Program-made: the position numbers and the translations under genes
Notes under the pieces: model-generated
The model's input: the letters and a program-made list of their open reading frames with translations, nothing else
The model's database searches: none
Told to the model about the DNA's origin: nothing
NCBI GenBank assembly: GCA_016927275.1
Contig: JAFGMW010000095.1
Location: 9,247 to 73,246, forward strand
Length of the DNA: 64,000 bases
Direction: 5' to 3'
From: Pseudomonadota bacterium
GTDB taxonomy: Bacteria > UBA10199 > 2-02-FULL-44-16 > JAAZCA01
Shown: positions 36,581 through 57,753 of the stretch, in pieces
How the letters are laid out: every line of letters begins with the position of its first letter
How positions within the stretch are numbered: position 1 is the first letter of the stretch

Positions 36581-36597
36581 AAAATTGAAAACCAAAA

Positions 36598-36790: not shown

Positions 36791-36850
36791 CACCAGTCAC
36801 GAGTCACCAGTCACGAGTCACGAGTCACGAGTCACGAGTCACGAGTCACG
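36791..36850. repeat. tandem octamer repeat array (CAGTCACGAG/GTCACGAG)x7, member of the dispersed GTGACTSG repeat family
   Basis: caccagtcacgagtcaccagtcacgagtcacgagtcacgagtcacgagtcacgagtcacgg. Confidence 0.8.
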
Positions 36851-36989
36851 GCTTTCAAGGGCTGCCCTAATTAGCCAATCCGGTCGGCTTTGTCCACGAT
36901 TTATTGGCCTCGAATTCCATAGAAATTCAAGCTCTTGACAGCATATCAGAACCTGATAAGGAGTTGGAAATTCATCACAAGGGGGGCTC

Positions 36990-37778
36990 ATGAAAAGGAT
37001 TTTCGTTGTAGCGATCGCGGCGCTCGCAGCCATGGCGTTTGCCGCAAGGGACGCATCGGCAATATCCAAGCAGTACCTGCCGAAGAAGTCGGGAGAAAAG
37101 ACCTTCACCGAGCAGGAAACGAAGATCGAGAAGGAGGCGGAGAAGGAGTCGAACCCGCGCCCCGAGTTCCCTGAAAAGGGCTGGCACAAGGGGGCATACA
37201 TCGCGGCGCACGGCGGCTTCATGCAGGCGACCAACGACCAGAACCTCGTCACCAACCGCAAGTTCGACGGGAGCATAATACCGGCGGTGGGCCTCACCTT
37301 CGGATGGGACATCGCCGACTGGATCGGCCCCATGCTGCAGATGACATACGGGATGGCCACCGACCAAGTGGGCGACGGATTGACCCCCGACACCCCGATC
37401 CAGGACGGCCGCGAGCACGCCCTCAACTTCTCGCTCTTCTGCAGGGCCACGCTCCCCTACTTCACTCGGGCCGGCTGGCAGCCGAACTCAGTCAAGTTCA
37501 TCCCGTACCTCAAGCTCGGCGGCACGGGCCACGCGCTCTACGTGCACGCCGACGGCAACGGCAACAAGGTCGGCGCCTGGGGCGGAGGCATCGGCGTGGG
37601 CGGCGGCGTGGAGTTCTTCATCTGGAAGGGGCTCTTCTTCGCCATCGACTTCACCGAGAACGTGATCTTCCAGCAGGCCTATTACAGGACCGTCAACAAC
37701 GTGCCGAACACCAAGGTGACCGACGGCGGCACGAAGTTCCAGGCCAACGTCCTGGGACTGCTCGGCTGGCACTTCTAG
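36990..37778 (+). CDS. outer-membrane beta-barrel protein (OmpW/OmpA-barrel-like)
   Basis: Signal peptide MKRIFVVAIAALAAMAFA; alternating beta-strand pattern; C-terminal aromatic signature ...LGLLGWHF. Confidence 0.6.
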   Translation: MKRIFVVAIAALAAMAFAARDASAISKQYLPKKSGEKTFTEQETKIEKEAEKESNPRPEFPEKGWHKGAYIAAHGGFMQATNDQNLVTNRKFDGSIIPAVGLTFGWDIADWIGPMLQMTYGMATDQVGDGLTPDTPIQDGREHALNFSLFCRATLPYFTRAGWQPNSVKFIPYLKLGGTGHALYVHADGNGNKVGAWGGGIGVGGGVEFFIWKGLFFAIDFTENVIFQQAYYRTVNNVPNTKVTDGGTKFQANVLGLLGWHF

Positions 37779-37796
37779 AGGGTCCCTCTCGACCGA

Positions 37797-37830
37797 TAAA
37801 AAAACCCCGGCATATGCCGGGGTTTTTTTG
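37797..37830 (+). terminator. rho-independent terminator
   Basis: aaaaaaaccccggcatatgccggggtttttttg. Confidence 0.8.
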
Positions 37831-37844
37831 CGATCGGGCATAGA

Positions 37845-38618
37845 CTACTCGCCGCCTGCCGCATCCTCGACCCTCGTGAGCCTGTAGACCTTGAACTCGT
37901 CCTTGTCCGGGCAGCCGTCGCCCTCGCACTCGATATCCCTGTACTGGCCCAGAAACTCCACGATGCCGTTGTACATCGCCACCGCCTCCCTCGCCTGCCC
38001 CCGGAGGATCTCCGGCATCCTGCCGGTGTCGGTCTTGAGATAGGACTTCCTCTCGGCGCACCCGCCCCCGCCGCCGATCTTCGCCATGCCGCAGAGATTG
38101 TCGAAGACCTCGTAGAACTCCTTGCCCAGCCGGTAGCCGACCCCCTTCGAGGAGCCGGAGCCCCTGATCCTCTCGATGTCGATTCCCAGGATGTTCGAGT
38201 CGCTGAATATGCCCGCGCCCTCCAGGTGCCCCACGACGTCGTGCTTCCAGTAGTCGGCGCTGAACTCCAGCTCGCTCGATAAAAGGCCGCCCACGGCCCC
38301 GTTTTCCTTCCACCTCTCCAGGACCTTCCCCGCCATCTTGAGCTTGTTGTAGAGGTTGAAGAACATCCTGATGCCGTCCGCCTTCGACGGCTCCATGATC
38401 CCTTTTTTCACGAACGCATCGACGACCACGTCCTGAAAATAGAGCGACGCCACGCCTCCTTCGACTCCCTCGTGAAGCGAGAAATCGTTACGGTCCAGTA
38501 TTCTGAACGGCGCCCGCTCGTCATGGCTCTTGAGAAAGCAACCGAGATCTTCGTCCTCGACAGCTATCTCCAGATAGCGGTCCACTATCCTGTTCACGCA
38601 GACATCTTTCGGCTCCAT
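37845..38618 (-). CDS. hypothetical protein (Cys-containing, possibly DUF3786-like)
   Basis: Start at internal ATG (MEPKDV) preceded by GAGGAGG; conserved-looking CEGDGCPDKDEF near C-terminus. Confidence 0.45.
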   Translation of the reverse strand: MEPKDVCVNRIVDRYLEIAVEDEDLGCFLKSHDERAPFRILDRNDFSLHEGVEGGVASLYFQDVVVDAFVKKGIMEPSKADGIRMFFNLYNKLKMAGKVLERWKENGAVGGLLSSELEFSADYWKHDVVGHLEGAGIFSDSNILGIDIERIRGSGSSKGVGYRLGKEFYEVFDNLCGMAKIGGGGGCAERKSYLKTDTGRMPEILRGQAREAVAMYNGIVEFLGQYRDIECEGDGCPDKDEFKVYRLTRVEDAAGGE

Positions 38619-38702
38619 GCGCACCTCCTCGCCGGCCGCCTGCAATAAAAAGGCCGGACGATTACTTTCTCGGCGCTGTCGAATATTTGTTGCGGGGTTT
38701 TT

Positions 38703-40091
38703 TCAGCCCACGCTCATGTACTCCCTGACCCTCAGCAAGACCCCGATATCATTGGCTTTTTTTCGGCAGGCCTCGATGTCCAGGCCGGGCAGGGCAACGA
38801 CGGTCACGACCACCTCGGGTATGCACCTCTTCGCCTCGAGGACGAAATCGAGCATGGCCGCGTAGGCCTTCTCGCCGAACCTCGAGGGGCAGATCGACGC
38901 ATGGGAGGCCGCATCGGCCGCGTTCATGGAGACCGACACGGAGTCTATGAGCCCGGCGAGTTCCGGGACCACGTTGCGGCCGTAGACGAGGTTGGCCAGC
39001 CCGTCGGTGTTGAGCCTCACCTTCTTCGCGCCGCGCTCCTTCATCCTGCGCGCGATGACCTTGAGCACCTCCAGCCTGAGCGTGGGCTCGCCGTACCCGC
39101 AGAACACCACCTCGTCGAACGTCTCAGGCTGTCCCACTGCCTGGAATATCTGCTCCACGTCCGGCTCGTGCTCGAGCTTGAGGTAGTAGCCCTTGACCTC
39201 GAAGTCGGTGAACTTGGGGCAGAAGGTGCACGCCATGTTGCAGCGGTTGGTGATGTTGAGATAGAGCGAGTTGCGTATCCTGTAGGCGATGCTCGTCTCC
39301 ATCTCGCAGCCGGGCAGCCCGAAGAGGCGCCTGGCGTTCAGCGTCGTGACGCGCGCGACGTCCTCGATCGCGACCTTCTTGATGCGCGCGATCTCCCCGG
39401 CCACCTCCGCCACGTACGCCGGCTCGTTGCGGCCGCCCCTGTGCGGCTCGGGCGCGAGATAGGGGCAGTCGGTCTCGAGAAGGATCCTCTCGAGCGGGAC
39501 CCCCGCCACGACCTCCCTGAGGACCTTCGCGTTGCGGAAGGTGACCACGCCCGGCACCGAGATGAAAAAACCCTCCTTCACGATGCGCCTGGCGAGGGCG
39601 AGGTCACCGGAGAAACAGTGGAACACGCAGCCCCTCTTCGGGGCGCCGGTCTCCTCGATCACCTTCATCGCCTCTTCGATCGCCTCGCGCGCGTGAATCA
39701 CCGCCGGCTTGTCGACGCGGATGGCGAGCTTCATCAGCTGGCGGAACCTGTGCGCCTGACTCTCGGGGTCGGAATGCCTGCGGAAGAAATCGAGACCGAT
39801 CTCTCCTATTGCCACACACTTCGGGTCCCGGGCCATAGCCTCTAGATCGGCGATCCACGAGTCGTCCATCTTGTCCGCATCGTTGGGGTGCACGCCCACC
39901 GTGGCGAAGAGCCTCGGGTCTGTCCGCGCCAGGTCCAGCGCCGCGCGGTTGCCCTCGAGGCCCGCGCCTGCGCCCACGAGCACGATCTGGGACAGACCGG
40001 CCTCCCAGGCGCGGGCGAGGACCTCCTCCCTGTCTTTTTCGAACTCCGGGAATGTGAGGTGGGCGTGGGTGTCGACGAGCTCGATCTTCAT
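38703..40091 (-). CDS. TatD-family hydrolase fused to a TatD-associated radical SAM domain
   Basis: N-terminal TatD signatures (LVDTHAHL, GEIGLDF, HCFSG, ETDCPYL); C-terminal ~200 aa with CNMACTFCP (CxxxCxxC) radical-SAM cluster motif. Confidence 0.75.
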   Translation of the reverse strand: MKIELVDTHAHLTFPEFEKDREEVLARAWEAGLSQIVLVGAGAGLEGNRAALDLARTDPRLFATVGVHPNDADKMDDSWIADLEAMARDPKCVAIGEIGLDFFRRHSDPESQAHRFRQLMKLAIRVDKPAVIHAREAIEEAMKVIEETGAPKRGCVFHCFSGDLALARRIVKEGFFISVPGVVTFRNAKVLREVVAGVPLERILLETDCPYLAPEPHRGGRNEPAYVAEVAGEIARIKKVAIEDVARVTTLNARRLFGLPGCEMETSIAYRIRNSLYLNITNRCNMACTFCPKFTDFEVKGYYLKLEHEPDVEQIFQAVGQPETFDEVVFCGYGEPTLRLEVLKVIARRMKERGAKKVRLNTDGLANLVYGRNVVPELAGLIDSVSVSMNAADAASHASICPSRFGEKAYAAMLDFVLEAKRCIPEVVVTVVALPGLDIEACRKKANDIGVLLRVREYMSVG

Positions 40092-40801
40092 CGCGTCCCT
40101 TCGGTGATCTCCTCCGGCTCGGCATGCCCTGCGGCGTCGCCGGCCAAGGCCGGGTTCTCCCTGTCGAATGCCTCCATGAGCCGCGAGAACAGGGAGACGA
40201 ACTCCTCCTCGCCCGAGGCGACGGCGAACTCATTCGCCTCCGACAAAAAACGCCTGCAAACCTCCAGCGCGGCGCCGCGGCGCATCAGCCCCTCGACGAG
40301 GGCGAGGTCTATGTTCTTCGCGGAGACGAACCCCTTGAACCCGTCGCCCATGGACCTGCCCAGCATATCCGCCGCCTTTCTCCTGTCGCCCTTCTTGAGA
40401 TAGGCGAGCCCCATCGTAGTGTACGCCTGATGGGCGAAGACAGGGTTGCCGGGGATGAGATCCAGGACCTTCTTCGCCTTGCGGACCGCCTGGTCGTACT
40501 CGGCGAACTGCTCTATGAGGAGCCTGGCCGAGATGATCTTGAGGGCCGGGTCCCTGGGCAGGAGCTTCTCAGCGCGCTCGTAGTGCTTCCAGGCGGTCTT
40601 GAACTCGCCCTGCACCTTGAAGAGCACGCCCATCACCGAGTGGTAGAGCGCGACTGCCGCGTCGTCGTCGGTGCGGGACATGGTCCCGGCGAGCAGCTTC
40701 TCCGCGTCGGCGTACTGCTTCGCGGCGATGAGCTCGAAGGCGCGGTAGCAGACGTCGCTCGCGCTTACCGGTATCGGGTCCTTCTTGTTGGGATCGATCA
40801 T
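40088..40801 (-). CDS. tetratricopeptide-repeat protein (translationally coupled to TatD-rSAM gene)
   Basis: TPR-like helical repeats; stop overlaps downstream start (ATGA). Confidence 0.65.
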   Translation of the reverse strand: MIDPNKKDPIPVSASDVCYRAFELIAAKQYADAEKLLAGTMSRTDDDAAVALYHSVMGVLFKVQGEFKTAWKHYERAEKLLPRDPALKIISARLLIEQFAEYDQAVRKAKKVLDLIPGNPVFAHQAYTTMGLAYLKKGDRRKAADMLGRSMGDGFKGFVSAKNIDLALVEGLMRRGAALEVCRRFLSEANEFAVASGEEEFVSLFSRLMEAFDRENPALAGDAAGHAEPEEITEGTR

Positions 40802-40815
40802 CGGACACCTCTTTT

Positions 40816-40887
40816 CGTGACTCGTAACTCGTGACTGGTAAAACCTTGTGTTTCACGCCAGTCACGAGTCACTAGTCACGAGTCACG
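40816..40887. repeat. inverted arrays of octamer repeats (CGTGACTCGTAACTCGTGACTGG ...17 nt... CCAGTCACGAGTCACTAGTCACGAGTCACG) forming a long hairpin
   Basis: Member of the dispersed GTGACTSG family; sits between IMPase stop and TPR start. Confidence 0.8.
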
Positions 40888-41658
40888 TTTCTTGAGCACT
40901 TGAATCATCCCCTCATGCAGCCTGCCGTTCGATGCCAGGATCTCCGTGCCGTACAGGTCGAAGGGCGATCCGTCGAACGCGGTCACCCTGCCCCCGGCCT
41001 CCGCTATGATGCAGGCGCCAGCCGCCATGTCCCACGGTTTCAAGAACATCTCCCAGAACCCGTCCACCCGGCCGCAGGCGACCCACGCCTGGTCGATCGA
41101 CGCGGAGCCGGGCCTGCGCACCGCCTGCGCCCTCCTCGCGAATCTGCCGAAGTTGTCGAGGTTCGTGAGCCCATCCTCCCTGTGCACGCTGTAGGCGAAG
41201 CCGGTGGCCAAAAGCGCCCTGTCCATGGACGCAGTGGCGGACACGGCTGTGCGACGGCCGTTGAGGCGCGCCCCCTGCCCCCTCTCAGCCGAGAAGATCT
41301 CGTCGCGGTTCGGGTCGTATATCACCCCCGATGTGATATCGCCGCCGACCTCCGACGCGATGGCGAGGCAGAATATCGGAATCCCGTGCGAGTAGTTGAT
41401 CGTCCCGTCGAGCGGATCGATTATCCAGCGGCGGCTCGCCTTTCCGGACGGACGCTCCCCCTCCTCGGCCAGGATGTCGTCGCCGGGAAAGCTCTTCCTC
41501 ATCTCGGAGACTATGAACTCCTCGCACATCCGGTCCACGTCGGTGACGATGTCCCACGCGTCCTTGTGCTCGACGCGCCTTTGCCCCCCCAGGTGCTCCA
41601 TCTGGATGCTGCCCGCGGCCCTGGCGATCTCCGATATCCTCTCCAGCTCCGATGTCAT
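40876..41658 (-). CDS. inositol monophosphatase family protein (SuhB-like)
   Basis: WIIDPLDGTINYSHGIPIFCLAIA and C-terminal WDMAAG motifs. Confidence 0.85.
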   Translation of the reverse strand: MTSELERISEIARAAGSIQMEHLGGQRRVEHKDAWDIVTDVDRMCEEFIVSEMRKSFPGDDILAEEGERPSGKASRRWIIDPLDGTINYSHGIPIFCLAIASEVGGDITSGVIYDPNRDEIFSAERGQGARLNGRRTAVSATASMDRALLATGFAYSVHREDGLTNLDNFGRFARRAQAVRRPGSASIDQAWVACGRVDGFWEMFLKPWDMAAGACIIAEAGGRVTAFDGSPFDLYGTEILASNGRLHEGMIQVLKKRDS

Positions 41659-41798
41659 AAGAATCCTTTGAATTTACAAGAAGATAGCACGCAGCAAGCC
41701 GGGAGGTCAAGCATGTCAGAATATCACCAGGAGTAAATTCGCCCCCTCACCCTCCCCTCTCCCTCGAGGGGAGAGGGTTAGGGAGAGGGTGGTCATTG

Positions 41799-42473
41799 TC
41801 ACAGTGCCCTCGCCACCGTGATTGCATCCACGCGGCCGGCTCCCGCCTTCATGAGGGCGCGGGCGCATTCGTTGATCGTGGCGCCGGTTGTCATGACGTC
41901 GTCGACCACGAGCAGCGATCTCCCCTCTATCTTCTTCGCGCGCCCCGCGTTCGCGGCGAACGCGCCCCTCACGTTCTCGATCCTCTCCTGCCTCCCCTGC
42001 CCCACCTGCCTCTCCACGCTGCGCACGCGGACGACGAGTCCGGGATCGAAGCGCATCCCGCAACCCCTCGCGAGCGCCCTCGCCAGCAGCGCCGGCGCGT
42101 TCGCTCCCCTGCCCACGACCCGGAGCCCCTGCATGGGCACGCAGGTGACCGCGTCGTGCGCGCCGATCTCGCCGAGCGCGCGCTCGAGCTCCCTTGCGAA
42201 GAACGGGAGCGCGAAGATCTCGCCCTCGTACTTGAGGGACCAGAGGGCGCGCCTCACCGGATCCTCATGGGCGAAACAGGAGCGGGCCCTCCCCACCCAG
42301 ACCCGCCACGGGAGGTCGATCAGCGCGTCAGAGGCAAGCCGGTTGAGCCTGGGCTCGCACCCTGCGCAGGCGGAGTGCGCCGAGCGGGAGCGCTCGCCGC
42401 ACAAGGGACACCGCGGGGGATAGAGGAGGTCGAGCGCCGATCGAACGATTCGCCTTGCGGGATGCCGTTTCAT
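41799..42473 (-). CDS. comF: ComF-family phosphoribosyltransferase-like protein
   Basis: N-terminal Cys4 zinc ribbon (CPLCGE...CAGCE), C-terminal PRTase motif LLVVDDVMTTGATI. Confidence 0.75.
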   Translation of the reverse strand: MKRHPARRIVRSALDLLYPPRCPLCGERSRSAHSACAGCEPRLNRLASDALIDLPWRVWVGRARSCFAHEDPVRRALWSLKYEGEIFALPFFARELERALGEIGAHDAVTCVPMQGLRVVGRGANAPALLARALARGCGMRFDPGLVVRVRSVERQVGQGRQERIENVRGAFAANAGRAKKIEGRSLLVVDDVMTTGATINECARALMKAGAGRVDAITVARAL

Positions 42474-42554
42474 CGCAAGAGGAGATCACACCAAAAAAAC
42501 GCCGCGCGCCAGAGGAATCTTCACACAGGACTCACAGCGGACCCGGACACGGTT

Positions 42555-44771: not shown

Positions 44772-44847
44772 AGCGCCTCCCGATCAAGGTTGAAAGCCCG
44801 GCCCCATGTCTCGGCCGGACCGCAGAAATGTTGCCTGAAAAATTCGC

Positions 44848-45201
44848 TCAGCCGTTGATGCCCTTGAAGACCACCCTCGGCGCGTCGAACCAGAGCTTCT
44901 CGAGCTGGTAGTGTTCCCGGTCCGCCTGGTAGAAGACGTGGGTCACCACGTCGCCGTAATCCAGGAGCGCCCAGCGGCCCGAGCGCACCCCCTCCTCGCC
45001 GATCGGCCTTCGGCCGGCATCCTTGAGCCCCTCCTCTATCGCCTCGGCTATGGCCTGGACCTGCCGGTCGGAGCTCCCGCTCGCTATCACGAAGAAGTCG
45101 GTGAAGCTCGTGAGCTTTCGCAGGTCCAGCACGGCTATGTCCATCGCCTTGTGGTCGGAGGCGATCTTCGCGATCCTGCGCGCCAGCGTGCGAGTGGTCA
45201 T
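44848..45201 (-). CDS. rsfS: ribosomal silencing factor RsfS (Iojap)
   Basis: DIAVLDLRKLTSFTDFFVIASGSSDRQVQAIAE...WALLDYGDVVTHVF. Confidence 0.85.
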   Translation of the reverse strand: MTTRTLARRIAKIASDHKAMDIAVLDLRKLTSFTDFFVIASGSSDRQVQAIAEAIEEGLKDAGRRPIGEEGVRSGRWALLDYGDVVTHVFYQADREHYQLEKLWFDAPRVVFKGING

Positions 45202-46311
<1,110 letters not shown>

Positions 46312-46373
46312 CCTCGCAAGAAAAAACCCTCTGACGGGCAGAGGGTCTCTATTCAGACTAAGGCCCGCAGCGG

Positions 46374-46634: not shown

Positions 46635-46691
46635 GCTCTTATCCCACTTTCTCCGCTTCTTCGCTTCTTCGCTTCTCAGCCTCTCGGCTTC

Positions 46692-47003: not shown

Positions 47004-47142
47004 GGGAAACTCCCTTATTAATCAATCAATTTGCCCTGAGGGGCGGGCATCTCTAGCCCATATTCCGCTTTCAAGTCAAGGTTTTTTAGAGAAACCGAGC
47101 AACAAACAAGCCTTGTCTGCCGAGAATCATAGTGGAGGCGTT

Positions 47143-47402: not shown

Positions 47403-50400
47403 TTATGTGCCCGTGCGGAGCATCGCTGCGGCCGACATCATGGGCACCGCTGCGACCGAAGGCGCAAGCGGCCGGAAGGGCATCGCGAACGCAGGATTGA
47501 TCTCAGGGAGCATCGAATCCCTGTACATCACCGCACCGGTGGCCAGTGGAGACGGCTTGGGGCGCTTCTCGTGGCGGTCGAGGAAGTGGACGCGAGCGCG
47601 GCCGATTCCAAGGCCCTGCGCATGCTCGACAATGTCCTCGTCGAACTCCGCAAGCCTCGCGAATCCGCCGGCAGTATAGGCCCTCTCCACGAGCAGGTGC
47701 TCCCTGCCCTCTTCATCGCGCGTCACCTCGAGCATGCGCCTGGCCATCACCTCGCCGTCTATTATGTGGTTCGCCAGCTTGAACTGGCCCCACATAAGCT
47801 TGTTCAGCGGCTGGCCGCGACCGTTCGTCGAGTCTGCGTAGAGACTCGATAGCCGCTGGCAGGTCTCGGTTGGGATCATGCCGTGAAACGCGATCTTTTC
47901 CACCAGCCCGGTTATCTCGGTGAGCGCCGCCTTCTTCGCCGTCTTCACGCCCCTGGTGAGGCCGGTGACGAGGTTCTTGAGATCGACGCGGGCATTGGCA
48001 AAGAGGTCGCCGTAGGTCTCGCGTATCTGTGCGTACCCCTTCTCCATGATGTCGTGGAGCCGCTTCGCCTCCTCCATGTCCGCATCGCCGCTCTTCAGTT
48101 TCTCTGTCAGCGCACGCAGACCGTCCGGGAGCTCCTTGAATTCGCCGTCCGCTCCCGGCGTCGAGTTCACGTGCACGGCGAGCTGCCCTGCCGCCTGTCC
48201 CATCACAATGGCCTTCGCCTCGCTCTCGTCGACAGACTCGCCAGTGTTATGACGCAACTTCTTCCACTCCGTGCGCCAGCGCCCCACGAAATCAGGAGAA
48301 AACCCGAGCTGATCCCGCATCCTGTCGTATCGTTTCAGATAATGCAGATTACCTTCAAGGACAGGGCTCATGACGAGATCCGAGATCAGCGACCTGAGTA
48401 TCCGGACCCCTTCCTCATCCATGAACGACGCGGACTGGGCAAACAGGAGCAGAAGGCCCTTGTCGGAGAGGAATCCGCGGACTTCCTGCGCATGGCGCCA
48501 TTTCCTCGAGGACTCCCTGCCCTCCGGCTGCCCGTCCCTGAAGAGCAGGTCCACTGCCCTGTCGTCCCCGATCCTCTCGCGCAGGAATGCAAGGAGCGTC
48601 TTCTCGACACCTGACCTTAGGGCTGCCCGCGTATCGCCTTCCAGATCCCTGTGTGATCTGTAGAACTCCCTGCCCACCTCTTTCGGCAGCGAATCCAGCG
48701 CAGTCAGGGCCCTGAGCGTGCGAAGGGTGTTGCGCACGGACTTCCACTTGCCGGGATCGGTCGCCTCGAACACCCTGCTCATCACTTCTATCTTCTCGAA
48801 GGTCCAATCGCCAAGCATGTCCAGGACCGTCATGACCGAGTCGCGAAATCCGATGAAACCCGGTTGAGCGGCAAAGCCGCGCAGGTTGCGCGCGGCTTTC
48901 TCCGAAAAGCCCATGAGCTCCAGGTCCGCTACCCAGCTGCCGGACTCGAACCCGGCCTTGAAGAATCCGACAGAGGAGAGGTGATAAAAAGTCTGCTTAA
49001 AAACACCGGCGAAGCATTTCTTATCACTACAATTCCCCATGTACCATCTCAGGGATTTGTCAGCCGCACTGGCGACCGGACCCTCTGCCCTGAATTTTCT
49101 GGCCAGCAACCCATATATATGGGCCACAGATTTAATCACCCTTGTCGAATGGATTTTGTAGCTGTACCCGGGATTCAGAATCTCTATAATAGTTTGTGCG
49201 CCCTTGTAGACCTCAGGTGAGTTGTCTTCGAGTCTGTGAGCAAAGCGCGCATACGCTTCCAGGACATCCGCCACAACATCTTCCGACTGATTCCACTCCA
49301 GCATAAGTCCGCGCATTGCCGCAGCGCCTTCATGGATCTCCGGTGCTCCCTCCGCGAACTTCTTCAACAGCGCCGAATAGACACGGGCTGCCAGGCTCCG
49401 CACACGCTGTTCAGGGTACCTCATCAGACCGCGCAGGGCCTCGGCCTCGCGATAGAACTCGGGCGATGCCCCTGCAAACCTCTCTGAAAGCCTGACATAG
49501 GCATCCGCCGCTGTACCGCGCACATTCTGTTGAGGGTCCATCATCAGCCCGCGCAGGGCCGCAGCCTCCTCATAGACCTCGGGCGAACCCACCGCGAACT
49601 TCATGCACAGCCTCTCATAGCCATGAATCTCCGCATTTGTTCGCACCGCCCTTTCAGGATCTGTCATCAGCCTGCGCAGGAGAAAGGCGCCCATATGGAC
49701 GTCGGCCGAGTCCTCTTTGAATTTCGCCGACAGGATGCCATAGGTATAAGCTGCCTCGCTGCGCACATCCCATTCGGGATCTTTCATCAGCCTGCGCAAT
49801 TCCGAGGCGCCCAGCGCGACCTCGGCCGAACCCTCTGCGAATCTATCTGACAGCATTTGGTAGGCAAGGATGGCGCGGACGCGTACACCCTGTTCGGTGT
49901 CCGCCATCAGCCTGCGCAGGGCAGCCGCCTCTCTGCAGGTCTCGGGCGACGCGTCTGCGAACCTCTCCGAAAGCTTCCCGTAGGTACCGGCGGATCTGTT
50001 GAGCACATCGCCCTCGGGGTCCGTCATCAGCCTGCGCAGGGCCTCGGCCTCGCGATAGACTCCTGCAGAGCCCTGAACGAATTTCTTCGACAACATCTTG
50101 TAGGCCTCGGCTGCATCGTAACGCACACCGTCTTTGGCATCCCTCATGAGCATGCGCAGGGCCGCAGCGCCGAGATAGACCTCGGCAGAGCCCTCGATGA
50201 ACTTCTCCGACAGGGCCCCGTAGGTCCTGGCCGCAAACACGCGCTGGCCTTCCTTGTGGGAACGCATCACCCTGCGCAAAGCCTCGGCTTCGTTTATTAC
50301 CTCGGGCGGCTCCACCGCAGCCGCTGTCGACTTCGGGCGGAATAGGGAGCCGACCAGCCCGGCTATTCCGCTGAAAAAGGTCTCGACCGGCCCGGCCCGC

Positions 50401-50567
50401 ACGTAGGCGTCAACACCTCCCTCATCAAGCAGAGATGGATCGATCACGGAGGGCCGCGTATCGTCCTCTCTCGGACGCGCCAAAGGCCGCTCGGCCACTA
50501 TTTTCACGTCGTCGGACATCCCCCGACTCCTGTGCGCGCCCGGACGGGCGCGGGAAAGGTCGAACAT
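47403..50567 (-). CDS. large HEAT/PBS-lyase-like repeat protein with ~10 tandem 37-aa repeats
   Basis: Repeats of consensus EA[AE]ALRRLMxDPExxVRxxAAxAYxxLSE[RK]FAEGSPExY; underlying 111-bp DNA tandem repeats ~49230-50340 (antisense frame shows periodic HQPAQG); alternative start ATG 50519. Confidence 0.6.
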   Translation of the reverse strand: MFDLSRARPGAHRSRGMSDDVKIVAERPLARPREDDTRPSVIDPSLLDEGGVDAYVRAGPVETFFSGIAGLVGSLFRPKSTAAAVEPPEVINEAEALRRVMRSHKEGQRVFAARTYGALSEKFIEGSAEVYLGAAALRMLMRDAKDGVRYDAAEAYKMLSKKFVQGSAGVYREAEALRRLMTDPEGDVLNRSAGTYGKLSERFADASPETCREAAALRRLMADTEQGVRVRAILAYQMLSDRFAEGSAEVALGASELRRLMKDPEWDVRSEAAYTYGILSAKFKEDSADVHMGAFLLRRLMTDPERAVRTNAEIHGYERLCMKFAVGSPEVYEEAAALRGLMMDPQQNVRGTAADAYVRLSERFAGASPEFYREAEALRGLMRYPEQRVRSLAARVYSALLKKFAEGAPEIHEGAAAMRGLMLEWNQSEDVVADVLEAYARFAHRLEDNSPEVYKGAQTIIEILNPGYSYKIHSTRVIKSVAHIYGLLARKFRAEGPVASAADKSLRWYMGNCSDKKCFAGVFKQTFYHLSSVGFFKAGFESGSWVADLELMGFSEKAARNLRGFAAQPGFIGFRDSVMTVLDMLGDWTFEKIEVMSRVFEATDPGKWKSVRNTLRTLRALTALDSLPKEVGREFYRSHRDLEGDTRAALRSGVEKTLLAFLRERIGDDRAVDLLFRDGQPEGRESSRKWRHAQEVRGFLSDKGLLLLFAQSASFMDEEGVRILRSLISDLVMSPVLEGNLHYLKRYDRMRDQLGFSPDFVGRWRTEWKKLRHNTGESVDESEAKAIVMGQAAGQLAVHVNSTPGADGEFKELPDGLRALTEKLKSGDADMEEAKRLHDIMEKGYAQIRETYGDLFANARVDLKNLVTGLTRGVKTAKKAALTEITGLVEKIAFHGMIPTETCQRLSSLYADSTNGRGQPLNKLMWGQFKLANHIIDGEVMARRMLEVTRDEEGREHLLVERAYTAGGFARLAEFDEDIVEHAQGLGIGRARVHFLDRHEKRPKPSPLATGAVMYRDSMLPEINPAFAMPFRPLAPSVAAVPMMSAAAMLRTGT

Positions 50568-50686
50568 ATATGTTATCGGCGGAATTTTGAGGAAGTTGCG
50601 GGATTTGGGAGAGCTGAAAGCGGGGATGATATATTTAAGGATATCAATGAGTTAAATATTAAGGAGCGATGGGAATGCGAACCAAT

Positions 50687-50746
50687 GCGATGGTGAGGCG
50701 ATTAACTACTTCTCCACCACATCGAATTGATCGAGGCAACCCGCGG
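50687..50746. repeat. left copy of ~50-bp imperfect direct repeat (duplicate of the rng 3' end), overlapping the last codons (QFDVVEK*) of the AAA-ATPase gene
   Basis: gcgatggtgaggcgattaactacttctccaccacatcgaattgatc vs right copy gcgatgatgaggcgattttttacttctccatcacatcgaactgctc (~85% identity). Confidence 0.6.
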
Positions 50747-52067
50747 AATAGAGGGGAATGGAAAGCAATCCATATTTCAACGAAACCCCATCTGGCAATG
50801 TCACGTCATGATGTTCAAGATTCAGATTTCCGCCATAAATTCGCACGCCGAAATCAGCGCCGCTGCGGTAAAGGTATTGATGCAGCGATTTGAGGGCCCC
50901 GTGGCTCCCAGCCTTCACCTCCACCGGGATGAGCCGTTCGCCCCTCTGCAGGAGAAAATCCAGCTGGGAGGTCGTATCCTTCTCTTCCCGAATCCAGAAA
51001 TACGGCGTCACGCGATGATGCGCGTCCATCGCAAGCAGCTCCTGCCCCACAAATGCCTCGGCCAATCCGCCGCCGAACGCCGGATCCATCAACCGCTTCC
51101 GGACCTGATCTTCGGTGAGATTCAAGACATGCGTGCACAGCCCAATGTCGAGGTGCAGCGCCTTCGGCGCTGCCTTGGGCTTCTTCACAAGAGGCGCCAG
51201 AGTCCGCGTCGTGGGCCAGACGCGTTCGACGAGCATAGCCTCATGGAGAATGGAAAATGCATTTGAAATATCTTTAGATCGCGTCTGATCTTCGGAGAGA
51301 CGCGAATATTTGATGCGCACGCCGATCTGAAACGGGACACGATCCCAGACGAGTTTGAGATGCTCCACCTCGGAGCGCTTCGAGTACTTGACGAAGTCGT
51401 CATGAAAGGAAGAATGCAGCGCATCGTGGACGACCCGGACATCTTTGATGCTCTTCGTCTCCACATAGCGACCGACTGCCTCAGGCATACCGCCCACGGT
51501 CATATAGAGCGCCACCAGCCCCAGGAGTTTTTCATGCACAGGCTGAGGAATAGTGCGGCCGATGCGCTGGCCGCGCATCTCCTTCAGGATAAGGTCCTCG
51601 CCCAGCGCTTCAAGGAATTCCTCGAACGTCACAGGATACAGATACCGGAATTCGACCCTTCCCACCGGGAACGACCACCCTTCATCCTTCATGCGCACTT
51701 CGAGCAGCGAACCGGCTGCAATGACGTGGAGACCCGGCATCTCTTCGTAAAAATATCTTAGGAGTTTAATCGCAGATACGGAGTTCTGGATCTCATCGAT
51801 GAAAAGCAGAGTCTCGCCCGGAACGATGCGTTGATTGGTCACTCCTTCGATGCTCCGGACGATATCGCGGATATCGGAAACCTCGGCAAAGATGCGGCGA
51901 AGGGCGTCCTTTTCCAGATTCAACTCGATAAAACTGTTGAACTGCCCGGCAAATTGGTGGACCAGCGTCGTCTTCCCGGTCTGACGTGCACCGCGGATGA
52001 CCAAGGGCTTTCGGTGGGCCCCATTTTTCCATTCATTTAGTGATGCCTCCAGATGGCGTCTAAACAT
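50706..52067 (-). CDS. AAA+ ATPase with C-terminal DUF4143 domain
   Basis: Walker A GARQTGKT, Walker B LLFIDEIQ; DUF4143-like C-terminal half; GC lower than flanking chromosome. Confidence 0.75.
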   Translation of the reverse strand: MFRRHLEASLNEWKNGAHRKPLVIRGARQTGKTTLVHQFAGQFNSFIELNLEKDALRRIFAEVSDIRDIVRSIEGVTNQRIVPGETLLFIDEIQNSVSAIKLLRYFYEEMPGLHVIAAGSLLEVRMKDEGWSFPVGRVEFRYLYPVTFEEFLEALGEDLILKEMRGQRIGRTIPQPVHEKLLGLVALYMTVGGMPEAVGRYVETKSIKDVRVVHDALHSSFHDDFVKYSKRSEVEHLKLVWDRVPFQIGVRIKYSRLSEDQTRSKDISNAFSILHEAMLVERVWPTTRTLAPLVKKPKAAPKALHLDIGLCTHVLNLTEDQVRKRLMDPAFGGGLAEAFVGQELLAMDAHHRVTPYFWIREEKDTTSQLDFLLQRGERLIPVEVKAGSHGALKSLHQYLYRSGADFGVRIYGGNLNLEHHDVTLPDGVSLKYGLLSIPLYSAGCLDQFDVVEK

Positions 52068-52365
52068 GACAAAATACTACCAAAAGATGAGGTTCTTTAC
52101 AACGTAATTATTCCTATAGATGAGGTTCTTTTCACTTCTCCATCCTATAAACCGCTGCAAACAGCACTTTTCGCCGAAAACTGCCAACAGGATGACATAT
52201 TTCCAGTGTGGGGCGATTGTTTCCTGACGTCCCCGTGCGCAACATCATTCCAGCCGACATCATGGGCATGGTCGCGGCTGCAAGATGCACTCACGTCTTT
52301 TCGTTTGCTTCTCATGACGATTTGACATATATCAATTCTACCATTTTTTCCTCAAGGAGGTTTTT

Positions 52366-52920
52366 ATGAAAAGGATAGTAGTTTATTTTTCGATAGTTGG
52401 TCTGTTGGTGCTCGCAGCAAAACCTGTGCGAGCCGAATCTGGAGAAGAACCCGGCAAATATTATGTTTATGTTCAAGCAGTGAACAACGGGGCCCCATTC
52501 GGCTTGCAAGAGTGTGATATGAAGGCATTTTACTGCGAAGCGGCCAACCCAGACAACTGCTGGAGTGCAAAGACTTACACAAGCGATCAGGGGGGCGCGC
52601 GTTTTTGGTTCCAGAAAGTTTTTCAGGACAGAGAAATGGGATACAATATTTATATTACCGCTACCCCTAAGATGAGTTATCTTCTCTCCAGCAAGACCTC
52701 CCCGGATTTCCTTGTTGATGCAGATCATTCCCCATACTCGTCATGGGAATCGAGATTTATATTTTATTTTGGCAAACCGGTAATAAAAAGGCTGACGACT
52801 AAAGACATAGAGATGGTTGGCACCCCGCAAGACATGAAACAAATGGTTAAAGGAGAACCGCATAGCGGCGAAGCGCATATCGAACGGTCATTGCGCAAAG
52901 TCGTGCCTTTACAAAAATGA
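52366..52920 (+). CDS. hypothetical secreted protein (low-GC gene)
   Basis: Signal peptide MKRIVVYFSIVGLLVLAAKPVRA; AT-rich codon usage; AGGAGG RBS. Confidence 0.5.
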   Translation: MKRIVVYFSIVGLLVLAAKPVRAESGEEPGKYYVYVQAVNNGAPFGLQECDMKAFYCEAANPDNCWSAKTYTSDQGGARFWFQKVFQDREMGYNIYITATPKMSYLLSSKTSPDFLVDADHSPYSSWESRFIFYFGKPVIKRLTTKDIEMVGTPQDMKQMVKGEPHSGEAHIERSLRKVVPLQK

Positions 52921-53054
52921 TTTTGGATAATCCTGAGTTGTTTTATTGATGCCCAAACAAATGCCCCGTATTTAGGGGGCATTTGTCTTTAATCCGGCAC
53001 GATCCGGAATCGGCTGCTACAAGCACCCTTTCAAGGTTCGGCAAAGGGATTAAG

Positions 53055-53520
53055 TTATCTCATCAAGCCCCATAACATTTTGCTGATGGCCTCAAGGCGC
53101 GATTTGAGGGCGGCTGCCTCAACTGGCGTGAGCAGCCTGAAGGCGCGCATGAGGTCGATGCAAGCGCCTACTTCGGCCGAGCTGGCGCGGGCGATCGTAA
53201 AGAAGCGGAAAACACAGAGCTCAGAGAGCAGATTCAGATTGAGAAAACAGATTAAGAAAACGGCGCTCAGAACTCGCCCTACCATCGCCTTACCATCGCA
53301 CTATCATCGTTTGATCATCGAACTATCATCGTATCTGTTTTTTTACCGGGCAACGGCAAACGTGCATACAGCCGCGAACGCCGCCGTTTCTTTCAAATCG
53401 CGCTCGGGTCGCTCGCCGAAACCAGCGCAGCACTCGATCTTGCGCTTGCCTTCGGCCTCATCACCTCTGCTGCGCAGGACTCGCTCAAATCGCGGCTCCA
53501 ACTCGCATTCACGATGATTG
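53055..53520 (-). pseudogene. degraded four-helix-bundle protein gene (23S rRNA intervening-sequence protein family), frameshifted
   Basis: One frame gives C-terminal ..TIARASSAEVGACIDL...LEAISKMLWGLMR; another upstream frame gives ..LRSRGDEAEGKRKIECCAGFGERPERDLKETAAF resembling the family's N-terminal half; no single intact ORF. Confidence 0.35.
53281..53335. repeat. five tandem 11-bp iteron-like repeats (ACCATCGCCTT/ACCATCGCACT/ATCATCGTTTG/ATCATCGAACT/ATCATCGTATC)
   Basis: Direct inspection; located inside the islet next to the degraded four-helix-bundle gene. Confidence 0.6.
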
Positions 53521-53565
53521 AGGCCCTCCCATGAGCCTCAATCTTCTCTCTCAGCTCGGCTTTCG

Positions 53566-53598
53566 GTGTTTCGGTTCTCGGTGTCTCGGTTCTCGTCT
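53566..53598. repeat. tandem ~15-bp repeats (GTGTYTCGGTTCTCG)
   Basis: tttcggtgtttcggttctcggtgtctcggttctcg. Confidence 0.55.
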
Positions 53599-53677
53599 TT
53601 TCGAGGTACTCGGTGGAAGGGGAAGGCGATGAAACTGCGATGGTGCTGCGATGATACGGCGATGATGAGGCGATTTT

Positions 53678-55192
<1,515 letters not shown>

Positions 55193-55198
55193 AAAATT

Positions 55199-55227
55199 CC
55201 GTGACTGGTGACTGGTGACTGGCGTGA
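55199..55227. repeat. octamer repeat array (CCGTGACTGGTGACTGGTGACTGG) between rSAM/DUF2344 stop and rng start
   Basis: Member of GTGACTSG family. Confidence 0.75.
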
Positions 55228-55230
55228 TAC

Positions 55231-57753
55231 TCATTGCTTCCAGTCAACAGAGACCTTTCTGACCTCCAGGCGCCGGGCCTGATCCTCCGGGATGCCGAAG
55301 ACCCCCTGCAGGACCTCCGAGACCTTGAGCGCGGGGCGCCGCGAATTGAGCGTGAGCCTTAACACACCTGACTCCGACACGGCAAGCTCGTCGACGTACT
55401 CCCGAAGATCCACCGCGAGCGAGATCTCCTTGCGGACCCTGGAGAAAGGCAGCGGTTTATCCGACGCGAACAGCCCCAAAGCCGCTTCCCAGCCGACCGG
55501 CAGCGAGGAGGTCGCTGCCTCGTACATGGTCCTGTGAGTCGACTCCTCGATGGAGGGGTGCGACCCGTCGATTCGCACCGCGTCCAGGACCGCCATCCCC
55601 TCCGGCAGCCTCCCCTTCATGCTCTTTACGATCTCGACTGCATCGCGCTCTACCGCAAGCTCCACGTCGGCGAACTCGACCAGGCTCTCCACGCCGACGG
55701 GGACCGCCGGCCCCGCGGCGATGCGGGCCCTGGGGTGGAATCCCTGCGAGTAGGTCAGCGGGAGCCTGGATGCGCGGAAGCCCCGGCGGAGCGCGTCGAG
55801 CGCCTCGAGGTGGCCGAGGAACGCGGCCCGGCCGATTTTGCTGAACCGGATGCGATACCTGAAGACCGTGACTGGTGACCGGTGACTGGTGACTGGTAAT
55901 TCTGGACCAGAAATCTGTGACTGACCGCCAGTCACTAGTAACGAGTCACGAGTCACGGGTGTTATACGATTCACCAGCCCCCTCTTCGGATCGCATATGC
56001 CGCAGGCGGAGCAGGCCCCCCCCGCGCAGTCCTCGGTGGCGAAAAGCGCCGCGGCGCGCCGCCTCTCCCTCTCGAGAAAATCGCGCGAGGGGCCGGCGCC
56101 GAGGCCCTCCCACGGGAAAACGCAATCGTCCGGCCGCGCCTCGAGATACCGGTTCGGATCGATCCCCGCCTCGGCGAACGCATCCATCCAGAGCGCGATG
56201 TCGAGGCGCTCGTCCCAGCCGTCGAAGCGCGCGCCCTTTTTCATGGCGATCTCTATCGCGTCCGCGAGCTCCCCGCCGCCGCGCGAGAACACCCCCTCGA
56301 GAAAACTCATCCTGGCGCTGTGCCAGCGGTACTCGAGCCCCGGGCCGCGCAGCGTCCTCTTGAGCCTGCGCTGGATCCTCTCCGTCTCCTCGATCGATAT
56401 CTGCCCCTCCCACTGCAGCGGGGTGTGGGCCTTGGGCACAAAGGTGGAGGTGGAAACTGTGACCGTGGGCCTCCTGTGATGTTTTCTCCCTATGGCGAGG
56501 CAGCGGCGTGCGACCCTCTCGATCCCCTCGATCTCGGCCTCGGTCTCCCCGGGGAGGCCGATCATGAAGTAGAGCTTCACCGCCGAGAAGCCGCCGGCGA
56601 AGACCTTCTCGACCGACGAGTAGAGATCGTCGTCGGTGTTCCCCTTGTTCACGAAGCGACGCATCCGCTCGGTGGCGGCCTCGGGGGCCAGCGTGAACGA
56701 GCCTGCGCGGGCGCTCCCCATGGAGGCGACCACCCTTGGGGTGAGCGACTCGACCCTGAGGCTGGGGAGGGTGGCGTCCACCGAGAGCGCGCAGTCGCGC
56801 TGCACCGCCTCGAGCGCGCCCTCGAGCGGGGGCCAGTCGCCGATGGAGAGCGATAGGAACGAGAACTCCTCTTTGCCGCCGGCCTCTATCGCTTCGCAGG
56901 CGATCGACGCGGCCGCAGCGCCGGACCTCTGCCTCTGCGGGCGGTAAGTGTAGCCGGCCTGGCAGAATCTGCAGCCGCGCGTGCAGCCGCGCGCCGCCTC
57001 GACCGCGGCGCGCTCCTGCGTGGCCGCGTGGGCCACGACCTGTCTTGCAGGAAAAGGGATCGCATCCAGGTCTTCCACCCTGGCCATTCCCGGCGGCCGC
57101 GCTCCATCCGCATCGTGAATCGCGGGGACATAGACGCCTCTTATCGCGCTCAACGCCTCAAGCAGCCCGGCTCGATCTTGAATCGACCCCTTGACCTTTG
57201 ACCTTTCAGCTCTGAGCTCCCTGACTGCGCGTGCGATCTCTACGGCCGCCCGCTCGCCGTCGCCGATCACGATCGCGTCGAAGAACGGGGCCACGGGCAT
57301 GGGGTTGAACGCGCACGGCCCCCCTGCCACGACGACCGGATCGCCATCGCCCCTGTCGGAGGAGCGCAGCGGTACGCCGCCCAGCTCGAGGGCGGCCAGC
57401 GCGTTCGTGTAGGTGAGCTCATAGGCGAGGCTCACCCCCACGACGTCGAACTCCCGAAGGGTCCGCTGAGACTCGAGCGAGAAGAGGCCGATCCCCCGCC
57501 CCCTGAGCCCCTCCTCCATGTCCGGCCACGGCGAGAAGCACCTGTCCGCCAGCACCCCCTCCTCTGAATTGAGGAGGTGGTAGAGGATACAGACCCCCAG
57601 GTGGCTCATGCCGATCTCGTAAGCATCTGGAAATACAAGACAAAAACGGACATCGGCATCATCCCACCCCTTCGCGCGCGCGCCCACCTCGCCGCCCGCA
57701 TAGCGGTATGGGCGGGCCACAGAGGCAATGAGATCGCGTATTTCCGGGCGCAT
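55231..57753 (-). CDS. B12-binding-domain radical SAM protein (TIGR03960-like) continuous in-frame with a C-terminal DUF2344 (TIGR03936-like) domain
   Basis: CTRGCRFCQAGY radical-SAM motif; C-terminal region VFRYRIRFSKIGRAAFLGHLEALDALRRG.. matches DUF2344; the two parts are joined in-frame across the octamer repeat locus 55866-55958; no independent start codon for the DUF2344 part. Confidence 0.7.
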   Translation of the reverse strand: MRPEIRDLIASVARPYRYAGGEVGARAKGWDDADVRFCLVFPDAYEIGMSHLGVCILYHLLNSEEGVLADRCFSPWPDMEEGLRGRGIGLFSLESQRTLREFDVVGVSLAYELTYTNALAALELGGVPLRSSDRGDGDPVVVAGGPCAFNPMPVAPFFDAIVIGDGERAAVEIARAVRELRAERSKVKGSIQDRAGLLEALSAIRGVYVPAIHDADGARPPGMARVEDLDAIPFPARQVVAHAATQERAAVEAARGCTRGCRFCQAGYTYRPQRQRSGAAAASIACEAIEAGGKEEFSFLSLSIGDWPPLEGALEAVQRDCALSVDATLPSLRVESLTPRVVASMGSARAGSFTLAPEAATERMRRFVNKGNTDDDLYSSVEKVFAGGFSAVKLYFMIGLPGETEAEIEGIERVARRCLAIGRKHHRRPTVTVSTSTFVPKAHTPLQWEGQISIEETERIQRRLKRTLRGPGLEYRWHSARMSFLEGVFSRGGGELADAIEIAMKKGARFDGWDERLDIALWMDAFAEAGIDPNRYLEARPDDCVFPWEGLGAGPSRDFLERERRRAAALFATEDCAGGACSACGICDPKRGLVNRITPVTRDSLLVTGGQSQISGPELPVTSHRSPVTVFRYRIRFSKIGRAAFLGHLEALDALRRGFRASRLPLTYSQGFHPRARIAAGPAVPVGVESLVEFADVELAVERDAVEIVKSMKGRLPEGMAVLDAVRIDGSHPSIEESTHRTMYEAATSSLPVGWEAALGLFASDKPLPFSRVRKEISLAVDLREYVDELAVSESGVLRLTLNSRRPALKVSEVLQGVFGIPEDQARRLEVRKVSVDWKQ
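55866..55958. repeat. inverted octamer-repeat arrays (CCGTGACTGGTGACCGGTGACTGGTGACTGG ...31 nt... CCAGTCACTAGTAACGAGTCACGAGTCACGG) lying in-frame inside the rSAM-DUF2344 ORF
   Basis: Member of GTGACTSG family; translated as ..TPVTRDSLLVTGGQSQISGPELPVTSHRSPVT.. linker. Confidence 0.75.

Follow-up and report, generated by a model that had tools for sequence, protein, structure and literature searches.

The 64,000-nt stretch of contig JAFGMW010000095.1 analyzed here (hereafter the window) carries five dispersed loci of short tandem arrays with the unit GTGACTS, which very probably belong to the class of heptanucleotide simple sequence repeats (long SSRs, also termed short tandemly repeated repetitive sequences, STRRs). 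The family matches this class in every structural feature examined, and the window adds a case to a kind of repeat that other bacteria are already known to contain. The explanation favored for the arrays, namely that they are slippage-generated heptanucleotide SSRs in transcribed operon spacers that act in cis on the messenger RNA (mRNA), is regarded as an even call; the narrower claim that the arrays influence mRNA in cis at all is, taken by itself, one that we consider balanced at best and possibly tilted slightly toward no effect.

A search for GTGACTSGTGAC with at most one mismatch yielded 23 matches in the window, all located inside the five array loci, compared to an expectation of 0.36 ± 0.58 from 100 shuffles of the window, none of which (0/100) reached 23. 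All five loci listed in a first-pass annotation of this DNA are present at the coordinates given there. Tandem Repeats Finder assigned a period of 7 and 3.1–8.6 copies to the heptamer GTGACTS at every locus, with arrays at 36791–36850 (8.6 copies), 40815–40841 and 40860–40887, 46228–46254, 55201–55222, and 55868–55897 and 55930–55957. The octamer (GTGACTSG)n originally proposed as the unit therefore has to be replaced by a heptamer, because the supposed eighth base is the first base of the following unit, and it is this correction of the period that places the GTGACTS arrays in a known repeat class. Since the flanks of the five loci, which are spread over 19 kb, are mutually unrelated, the loci do not represent a segmental duplication, and their initial interpretation as a dispersed repeat family stands.

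At three of the five loci two arrays oppose each other, and the other two loci consist of single arrays. In the sense of the adjacent genes the paired loci have the structure 5′-(GTGACTS)n–loop–(SAGTCAC)n-3′, and folding of the sense-strand RNA resulted in hairpins of 26–32 base pairs, close to the 25–30 bp that had been annotated for these three loci. The pair between a suhB-like gene and a TPR protein gene has arms of 24 nt (40815–40838 and 40858–40881) that are 92% complementary and 19 nt apart (−45.9 kcal/mol; z = −5.7 relative to shuffles). In the pair located in the linker of a radical-SAM fusion gene, the arms are 31 nt long (55866–55896 and 55928–55958), 84% complementary, and 31 nt apart (−44.0 kcal/mol; z = −5.1), and the pair between rpmA and obg (46227–46254 and 46275–46311), whose second arm is degenerate, folds with −31.8 kcal/mol (z = −2.8). 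As 7 is coprime to 3, the (GTGACTS)n arm contains TGA in all three frames; the (SAGTCAC)n arm contains neither stop nor start codons. The single arrays, read as RNA in the sense of the downstream gene, showed less structure than almost all shuffles, both at 36791–36850 (z = +1.68) and at 55199–55222, where the RNA in the sense of rng was unstructured (z = +1.87). The window copies have unrelated loops and flanks. A scan for intrinsic terminators, in which a GC-rich stem is followed directly by a U run, listed none of the three hairpins, the terminator of rpmA being a separate hairpin, and the promoter and terminator scan revealed nothing associated with the arrays and no promoter-like site adjoining any of them. 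Rfam 15 searched at gathering scores returned only the tRNA-His and no family for the arrays, and in a permissive Rfam search the hairpins gave only sub-threshold chance matches to microRNA precursor models.

The annotated position of the arrays at gene boundaries agrees with the gene context. From 57.7 to 38.7 kb the window contains a single string of housekeeping genes on the minus strand, which begins with a fusion of the radical-SAM families TIGR03960 and TIGR03936 and continues with rng, an inserted block of approximately 6.7 kb, rplU, rpmA, obg, rsfS, an unknown gene of 738 aa, a comF-like phosphoribosyltransferase gene, the suhB-like gene, the TPR gene, and a TatD–radical-SAM fusion gene. 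Four of the five loci are located in spacers near the ends of open reading frames (ORFs), and the fifth resides in a hypervariable inter-domain linker. The ORF of the suhB-like inositol monophosphatase (40876–41658, minus strand) ends with ...KKRDS*, and its TGA lies inside the first hairpin arm, (GTGACTS)4 at 40858–40887; the second arm, (SAGTCAC)3 at 40815–40839 (both on the minus strand), is separated by 4 nt from the Shine-Dalgarno sequence of the TPR gene and is followed by AAAAGAGGTGTCCG and the ATG (40801). The intrinsic terminator of rpmA (AGACCCTCTGCCCGTCAGAGGGTTTTTTCT; 46319–46348, minus strand) is located immediately upstream of the repeat hairpin, whose degenerate 5′ arm GTAACAC GTAACAT GTGACAA GTGACCG GTGACC (46275–46311, minus strand) lies just after it, and the corresponding 3′ arm, (GTCACSA)4 GG at 46227–46254 (minus strand), ends 7 nt before the ATG of obg (46221), a gene without a strong Shine-Dalgarno sequence. 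The gap of 38 nt between the stop of the fusion gene (55231) and the ATG of rng (55192) is filled by a single array on the minus strand, (CCAGTCA)3 in gene sense (55199–55222), which ends 8 nt before the ATG. The other single array, (CGAGTCA)n with 8.6 copies on the plus strand (36791–36850), lies between a duplicated leader of the tRNA-His gene on the minus strand, which it adjoins directly on the upstream side, and an outer-membrane-protein gene, whose ATG (36990) it precedes by 140 nt. This gene is the only neighbor of an array on the plus strand, and here too the array reads as SAGTCAC when taken in gene sense. Stop-free arms prolong ORF calls upstream, with 14 spurious codons added to rng and 20 to obg (MSITPVTSHQSRNF..., reading ...VTSHQSR...), a practical point for annotation, as arrays in this orientation push ORF calls beyond the true start. 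Pfam and NCBIfam scans of the 20 ORFs around the arrays, which represent a part of the 64 kb, revealed no nucleic-acid-binding or transposase candidate.

The copy that had been annotated as lying in frame between two protein domains was found inside an ORF of 840 aa (55231–57753, minus strand), which comprises a TIGR03960 radical-SAM part (aa 8–590) and a TIGR03936 part (aa 632–835). The encoded protein is 100% identical to an NCBI protein from a “Proteobacteria bacterium” metagenome-assembled genome, the TIGR03936 part has no start codon of its own, and fused homologs of 815–870 aa are the rule in the lineage. The repeats encode a linker of approximately 33 residues (about aa 599–631) between both domains. 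Its 5′ hairpin arm, GTGACTC GTGACTC GTTACTA GTGACTG (55928–55958, minus strand), carries a G>T substitution in the third unit, and its 3′ arm, (CCAGTCA/CCGGTCA)4 at 55866–55897 (minus strand), encodes ...PVTSHRSPVT directly before the TIGR03936 domain (FRYRIRFSK...). The substituted unit is the only one in the 5′ arm that would place TGA in frame, and since it reads GTTACTA instead of GTGACTA, this triplet is changed to TTA by a single substitution and the reading frame is kept through the hairpin. As a speculative side reading, a stop-free array might serve as a spacer of adjustable frame and thereby ease the fusion of neighboring genes, because one 7-nt unit shifts the frame by +1. Arrays in the TIGR03960–TIGR03936 linker were found in at least eight lineages. 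Distant fusion homologs from metagenomes (34–46% identical) contain (CGAAACC)5.9 (L130, 9841–9881), (CAGAAGT)5.3 (L161, 3571–3607), or a 14-mer in 4.1 copies (L141, 9773–9829) at the linker position, and two of them (L141 and L161) have a second array in a variable loop near residues 160–205. Judging from these sequences, such repeats seem to land or expand in the linker repeatedly.

Contigs syntenic with the window were collected via homologs of the fusion protein, which are 69% (L122), 64% (L209), 62% (L125/L126 and L207), 60% (L123), and 56% (L124) identical to that of the window. The fusion linker contains (ACGAGTC)4.4 in L123 and L124, (GATCACC/GATCCCC)9.9 in L125, and an array of 11.9 copies in L207. 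In the leader of rng, (TCACGAG)3.7 was found in L124, (CACGAAT)4.6 in L207, and inverted 9-mer arrays in L123 and L125, and the leader of the TPR gene contains (CGGGTCA)4.7 in L124 and (ACGAAAT)2.7 in L123. The arrays in the obg leader always follow the same rpmA terminator, which is found in L123, L124, L125, and L209 as well as in the window; they consist of an inverted GGGATCA/GATCACC pair in L125, an inverted 8-mer pair in L123, and a single (CTTTYAA)4.3 array in L124. The hairpin upstream of obg is built from three unrelated units in the window, L125, and L123. Further arrays or hairpins of short period occupy the rplU–rpmA spacer of the window, L124, L125, and L209. The arrays are inverted and of other units in the latter three; in the window there is an 8-nt array, (GAAGCGAA)3.5 in gene sense (46649–46676). 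Short-period arrays thus recur at these sites down to homologs with 34–46% identity at the linker; they are therefore old there, and they expand, change their unit, and decay. L125 and L126, which differ by one single-nucleotide polymorphism (SNP) in 16 kb, have the same copy number in every array, a result from one strain pair, and the window is identical to the contig L121 of an independent Logan assembly over 9.7 kb. A split of the fusion gene in L207 was attributed to assembly frameshifts, as neighboring genes are fragmented too, and in L208 a poly-G run directly after the gene ends the contig, which was uninformative. Look-ups of the exact protein sequences of Obg and of two ORFs at the ends of the window yielded no record.

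Similar arrays are not confined to this lineage, as had been thought possible in the first-pass annotation. A scan for four GTGACNN units in one genome per species yielded at least 120 loci, and the matches listed include many phyla: Acidobacteriota (with many Pyrinomonadaceae), Planctomycetota, Verrucomicrobiota, Cyanobacteria (Scytonema and Anabaena, the former with GTGACCA as well as GTCACTG arrays), Bacteroidota, and Chloroflexota, in addition to Dialister, Streptomyces, and Geobacter argillaceus. Among these listed matches, 20 unique pairs (18 loci) have the order GTGAC..GTCAC versus one pair of the opposite order; the pair counts are not independent, because many pairs stem from related Acidobacteria, and at least five phyla contribute. 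The spacers of these listed pairs measure 16–86 nt, compared to 19–31 nt in the window. Of the single arrays listed, 42 have the start of a long ORF no more than 60 nt away on the GTCAC-sense side versus 24 on the other side, 7 nt being the commonest distance between array and ORF start. The GTGACRR/YYGTCAC pairs of Pyrinomonadaceae and relatives (L003, L009, L028, L073, L087, L099, L108) have a common loop-proximal motif, (A)AGTTAAAG ... CTTTAACTT, and several such pairs in Acidobacteriota end 7 nt before an ATG. To judge from this motif, the acidobacterial pairs look more like a coherent element family than the window copies with their unrelated loops.

Dispersed heptamer arrays have been known since 1990, when Mazel et al. 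reportedly described the STRR heptamers of heterocystous cyanobacteria, the historical prototype of the class. The reverse complements of STRR1 and STRR3, which we take to be ACTGGGG and ACTGTTG, would each be one mismatch away from ACTGGTG, a rotation of GTGACTG. The STRRs resemble the window arrays as tandem heptamers that are scattered over many intergenic sites and fall into several unit families within one genome, and in being tolerated inside a functional gene, which is a helix of the RNase P RNA there and a protein linker in the window; they differ in their unit and host phylum, and inverted pairing dominates in the window. The presence of STRRs in a variable helix of RNase P RNA was reportedly described by Vioque (1997), as cited in PMC2858038.

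The unit had not been recognized initially as a known REP/BIME, CRISPR, or transposon end. It does not represent an unknown kind of repeat: intergenic heptamer arrays, among them convergent inverted pairs whose position is conserved between species, have been published for Xanthomonas and Nostoc (PMC4692102), Beggiatoaceae (PMC4679880), and Geobacter metallireducens (PMC2700814), and heptanucleotide repeats are the most abundant class of long SSRs in many prokaryotes, an abundance attributed to slippage by Mrazek (2007) as quoted in PMC4679880 and PMC4692102. Xanthomonas genomes contain approximately 185 GGGAATC heptamer arrays each, typically of about four units and with a strong bias toward non-coding regions, and 70–75 convergent opposite-strand pairs per genome that are capable of forming stem-loops (Rehm et al., 2015; PMC4692102). 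Upstream of ORFs their G-rich strand has the antisense orientation, and downstream of ORFs it is the sense strand; a majority of the arrays occupy the same intergenic position in two species, with variation in length and sequence, and most are transcribed (PMC4692102). The window resembles this system in its convergent opposite-strand pairs (three of five loci) and in the arrays at the same gene junctions, with changes in length and sequence, in L123, L124, L125, L207, and L209. It differs from Xanthomonas, and from Nostoc with its GGGGA(C/T)T repeats (PMC4692102), by its host, an uncultured delta-proteobacterium-like lineage, by the pair placed in frame in a protein linker, and by the lack of a G3–G4 tract in GTGACTS, which makes G-quadruplex or i-motif formation inapplicable.

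Further counterparts exist in other phyla. Arrays of TAACTGA in 2–6 copies, a few nucleotides upstream of start codons, occur in marine Beggiatoaceae, some Cyanobacteria, and Bacteroidetes; their neighbors are housekeeping genes including ribosomal-protein genes, their spacers contain few canonical ribosome-binding sites, their phylogenetic distribution is patchy, and a translational role was proposed (MacGregor, 2015; PMC4679880). The window arrays likewise lie beside housekeeping genes, and those at obg and rng end 7–8 nt before the ATG. However, the sense strand of the TAACTGA arrays is rich in stops (TAA, TGA) and only 1 set in 170 is inverted, whereas the window arrays are stop-free next to the ATG and inverted at three of five loci. 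Geobacter metallireducens, whose order Desulfuromonadales is related to the host of the window, contains 24, 21, and 8 opposite-strand pairs of tandem 8-, 8/9-, and 7-nt units in spacers (Aklujkar et al., 2009; PMC2700814). These pairs have 3–5 units at variable distance and are located in biosynthetic or housekeeping operons, one of them between proB and proA; they are genome-specific, missing from a sister species, and were read as sites for a global regulator or for IHF/HU (PMC2700814). The paired-array architecture matches that of the window, but the consensus sequences (GTTGCTYN, TCTCCGTS[Y], and MTYCTGA) differ, which makes them the same kind of repeat and another family. An array just upstream of the fusion gene in L182 (7867–7896; ATTCTGA ATACTGA CTCCTGA ATTCTGA) fits the MTYCTGA consensus of class 3 in G. 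metallireducens (PMC2700814). A mechanism has been worked out by experiment for just one heptamer array in a leader, that of hmw in Haemophilus influenzae, where the (ATCTTTC)n array in the 5′ untranslated region is transcribed, forms a long hairpin, and sets downstream expression through RNase III processing (PMC12721329). In contrast to the window arrays, it represents a single, phase-variable locus family upstream of an adhesin gene, and in its hairpin the repeat pairs with a G-rich, non-repetitive arm.

Repetitive extragenic palindromic (REP) sequences, bacterial interspersed mosaic elements (BIMEs), and REPINs of enterobacteria and pseudomonads are built from a unit of constant size, an imperfect palindrome of approximately 35 nt that carries a conserved GTAG head, and are mobilized by a RAYT (Y1) transposase; REP/BIME sequences are transcribed, occur within operons, and act as barriers to mRNA decay and as local regulators, or have been proposed to do so. 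Dispersed extragenic inverted doublets that form hairpins, in genome-specific sequence families, are common to these elements and the window, but the window copies have no GTAG head, vary by whole 7-nt units, and have unrelated loops. A CRISPR array was ruled out as well, since Tandem Repeats Finder detected contiguous 7-mers without spacers, and the initial view that the repeats are no REP/BIME, CRISPR, or transposon end is supported. Integron attC sites were dismissed, as the arrays are flanked by core genes whose synteny is conserved. For a recombination or partition site, which had also been suggested, no indication was found.

According to the explanation favored here, the arrays would arise and turn over by replication slippage, and template switching would create the inverted copy. 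We infer that the arrays are transcribed with their operons, so that paired arrays would form imperfect intercistronic mRNA hairpins of 26–32 bp, long enough for cleavage by a double-strand RNase (RNase III type) or to serve as decay barriers. The 5′ arm (GUGACUS)n would halt any incoming ribosome via UGA in three frames and supplies the stop of the suhB-like gene, and the 3′ arm (SAGUCAC)n, free of stops and starts, ends just before the ATG of obg or the Shine-Dalgarno sequence of the TPR gene. Because this arm abuts the initiation region, the hairpin would set the accessibility for downstream initiation, and it could be melted by a ribosome that terminates upstream, as at the suhB-like gene. 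Single arrays in SAGUCAC sense would provide unusually unstructured, C-rich, start- and stop-free leaders right before an ATG. By these routes the arrays would modulate mRNA processing or translation. In favor of this explanation are the stable hairpins and the open single arrays, the placement of the suhB-like stop codon and of the obg and rng ATGs relative to the arrays, the occupation of the same junctions in relatives, the order and orientation bias in the cross-phylum matches listed, the removal of the in-frame TGA in the linker, and the precedents of hmw (PMC12721329) and of the mostly transcribed Xanthomonas repeats (PMC4692102).

Several results weigh against such a role. In L122 the linker retains a degenerate remnant, rng overlaps the fusion gene, and an array at rng is missing; in L209 the linker is not repetitive, and a lone CGAGTCACGA unit precedes the ATG of obg. 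These two are the closest relatives of the window, and the arrays are therefore dispensable. In L125 the arms lack stops and the 9-mer pair at rng has the reverse order, so the rule of a stop-rich 5′ and an open 3′ arm fails there, and three-frame stops as a universal purpose of the arrays were discarded for this reason. Folding of sense versus antisense strands revealed no consistent asymmetry from G-U pairs (the sense strand folded better in 5 of 10 hairpins), and pairing at the RNA level is therefore not distinguished from pairing at the DNA level. Rehm et al. found no gene-regulatory role for the Xanthomonas repeats (PMC4692102). A separate idea, mimicry of the anti-Shine-Dalgarno sequence (GAUCACC in L125 equals the 3′ tail of the 16S rRNA, and GGUGA in the 5′ arm is Shine-Dalgarno-like), was rejected because it fails across the unit variants.

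Some of these results would suit a non-functional by-product, in which slippage microsatellites are tolerated in spacers, their orientation and pair arrangement reflect only purifying selection against spurious GTG starts and stops near real starts, and the hairpin is incidental. We consider this main alternative a real possibility, though on balance an unlikely one. It accommodates the missing or degenerate arrays of L122 and L209, the free variation of units and copy numbers among relatives, the prevalence of heptamers among long SSRs attributed to slippage (Mrazek, 2007, in PMC4679880 and PMC4692102), and the constant copy number in the two near-identical contigs L125 and L126. What it fits poorly is that arrays recur at the same four junctions in at least five lineages with fusion proteins just 56–64% identical to that of the window, that the hairpin arms remain 84–92% complementary, and that the hairpin upstream of obg recurs with three unrelated units. 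Moreover, one unit variant is common to separate loci of a genome, which slippage within arrays does not explain. If GTGAC-type convergent pairs and their 7–9-nt analogs were cross-phylum cis elements kept by a trans-acting partner, a proposal that we regard as rather improbable, the common unit variants, the occupation of junctions across deep divergence, and the decay in close relatives would all be accounted for; the partner would be an RNA-binding or processing protein or an enzyme that generates or copies arrays, which genomes rich in arrays would possess and their array-poor sisters would have lost. Distinctly improbable is a function as DNA-level sites for a nucleoid-associated protein or global regulator, with cruciform or non-B DNA as a variant. 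Neither copy number (3–8.6) nor spacer (19–31 nt; elsewhere 16–86 nt) is fixed, one pair is located inside a coding linker, the arrays abut start codons with no promoter-like site beside any of them, their orientation tracks the direction of the downstream gene, and a period of 7 bp places successive units on different faces of the helix. The operator arrays for a dimeric regulator considered in the first-pass annotation fit poorly for the same reasons of variable dimensions, linker position, and start-codon adjacency. Iterated short units on opposite strands do resemble cooperative binding sites, however, each genome has unit families of its own, and the G. metallireducens pairs were interpreted in this way (PMC2700814).

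Mobile doublets of the REPIN type, copied by a RAYT-like or other trans-acting enzyme that some genomes have and others have lost, and decaying later, are highly improbable. Although the extragenic inverted doublets with their hairpins, the genome-specific unit variants common to several loci, the decayed remnants in L122 and L209, and the loop-proximal motif TTTAACTT common to acidobacterial pairs across species would be expected of such elements, a GTAG-type REP head is lacking, copies vary by whole units instead of having a fixed length, loops and flanks of the window copies are unrelated, copies occupy orthologous positions and not new insertion sites, and the 20 scanned ORFs, a part of the 64 kb, contain no transposase family. 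Least of all do we expect phase variation (contingency loci), in which the heptamer copy number would switch adjacent genes. The neighbors are housekeeping genes (obg, rng, suhB-like, and the radical-SAM fusion) and not surface or antigen genes, L125 and L126 (1 SNP in 16 kb, one pair) show no change in copy number, and the window equals the independent Logan assembly over 9.7 kb; this extremely improbable reading draws on the 7-nt unit, which shifts the reading frame, and on the heptamer SSR that has this function at hmw of H. influenzae (PMC12721329). The window and its relatives offer a compact comparative case, with four housekeeping junctions occupied across deep divergence, turnover of units, a rebuilt obg hairpin, clear rules of orientation and pair order, an in-frame pair, and losses in sister lineages, which makes the question of heptamer-array function experimentally approachable.

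Other features of the region accompany the arrays. Relative to L123, L124, and L125, a block of lower G + C content (0.51–0.59) is inserted between rng and rplU at 47403–53500. It encodes a HEAT-repeat protein of 1054 aa with an internal tandem duplication of 120 nt (49399–49624), an AAA_14/DUF4143 ATPase, and small ORFs that match no family, and in L209 a HEAT-repeat protein is found at the corresponding position. Next to the single array at 36791–36850, a second copy of the first 17 nt of the tRNA-His gene (36460–36535, minus strand) and of approximately 65 nt of the leader preceding it lies about 185 nt farther upstream, with 84% identity (36505–36600 and 36690–36790, minus strand). The duplicated segment contains another heptamer family, (GGAATTT/GGGATTT)n, which appears on the plus strand as CAAATTC at 36548–36580 and 36742–36773 and whose GGAATTT unit resembles the Nostoc GGGGATT repeats. 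The duplicate is followed by about 120 nt ending in the T-arm-like GTGGGCAAATCCCAC. ARAGORN called no tRNA at this duplicate, which may have originated as a tRNA copy that decayed or as the scar of an old integration. Directly downstream of the tRNA-His gene, a perfect inverted repeat of 19 bp with a 5-nt loop (CAAAAGAAAGGCGGGAGGG / CCCTCCCGCCTTTCTTTTG; 36419–36461) is probably its terminator.

Directly downstream of rng, two opposed arrays of five 11-nt units each (ATCGCCnnnnn ... GGCGATGAnnn) are located about 290 nt apart at 53274–53331 and 53624–53674. They are another kind of element than the heptamers and are kept in position and unit in L209, the relative with 64% identity (about 14040–14100 and 14265–14324); with their period of one helical turn, they are suggestive of repeated sites for protein binding or of RNA pairing over a long distance. 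Between both 11-mer arrays, a 7/8-nt array, (GAGAACC / GAGACACC)n in gene sense (53555–53595), is followed by a short hairpin.

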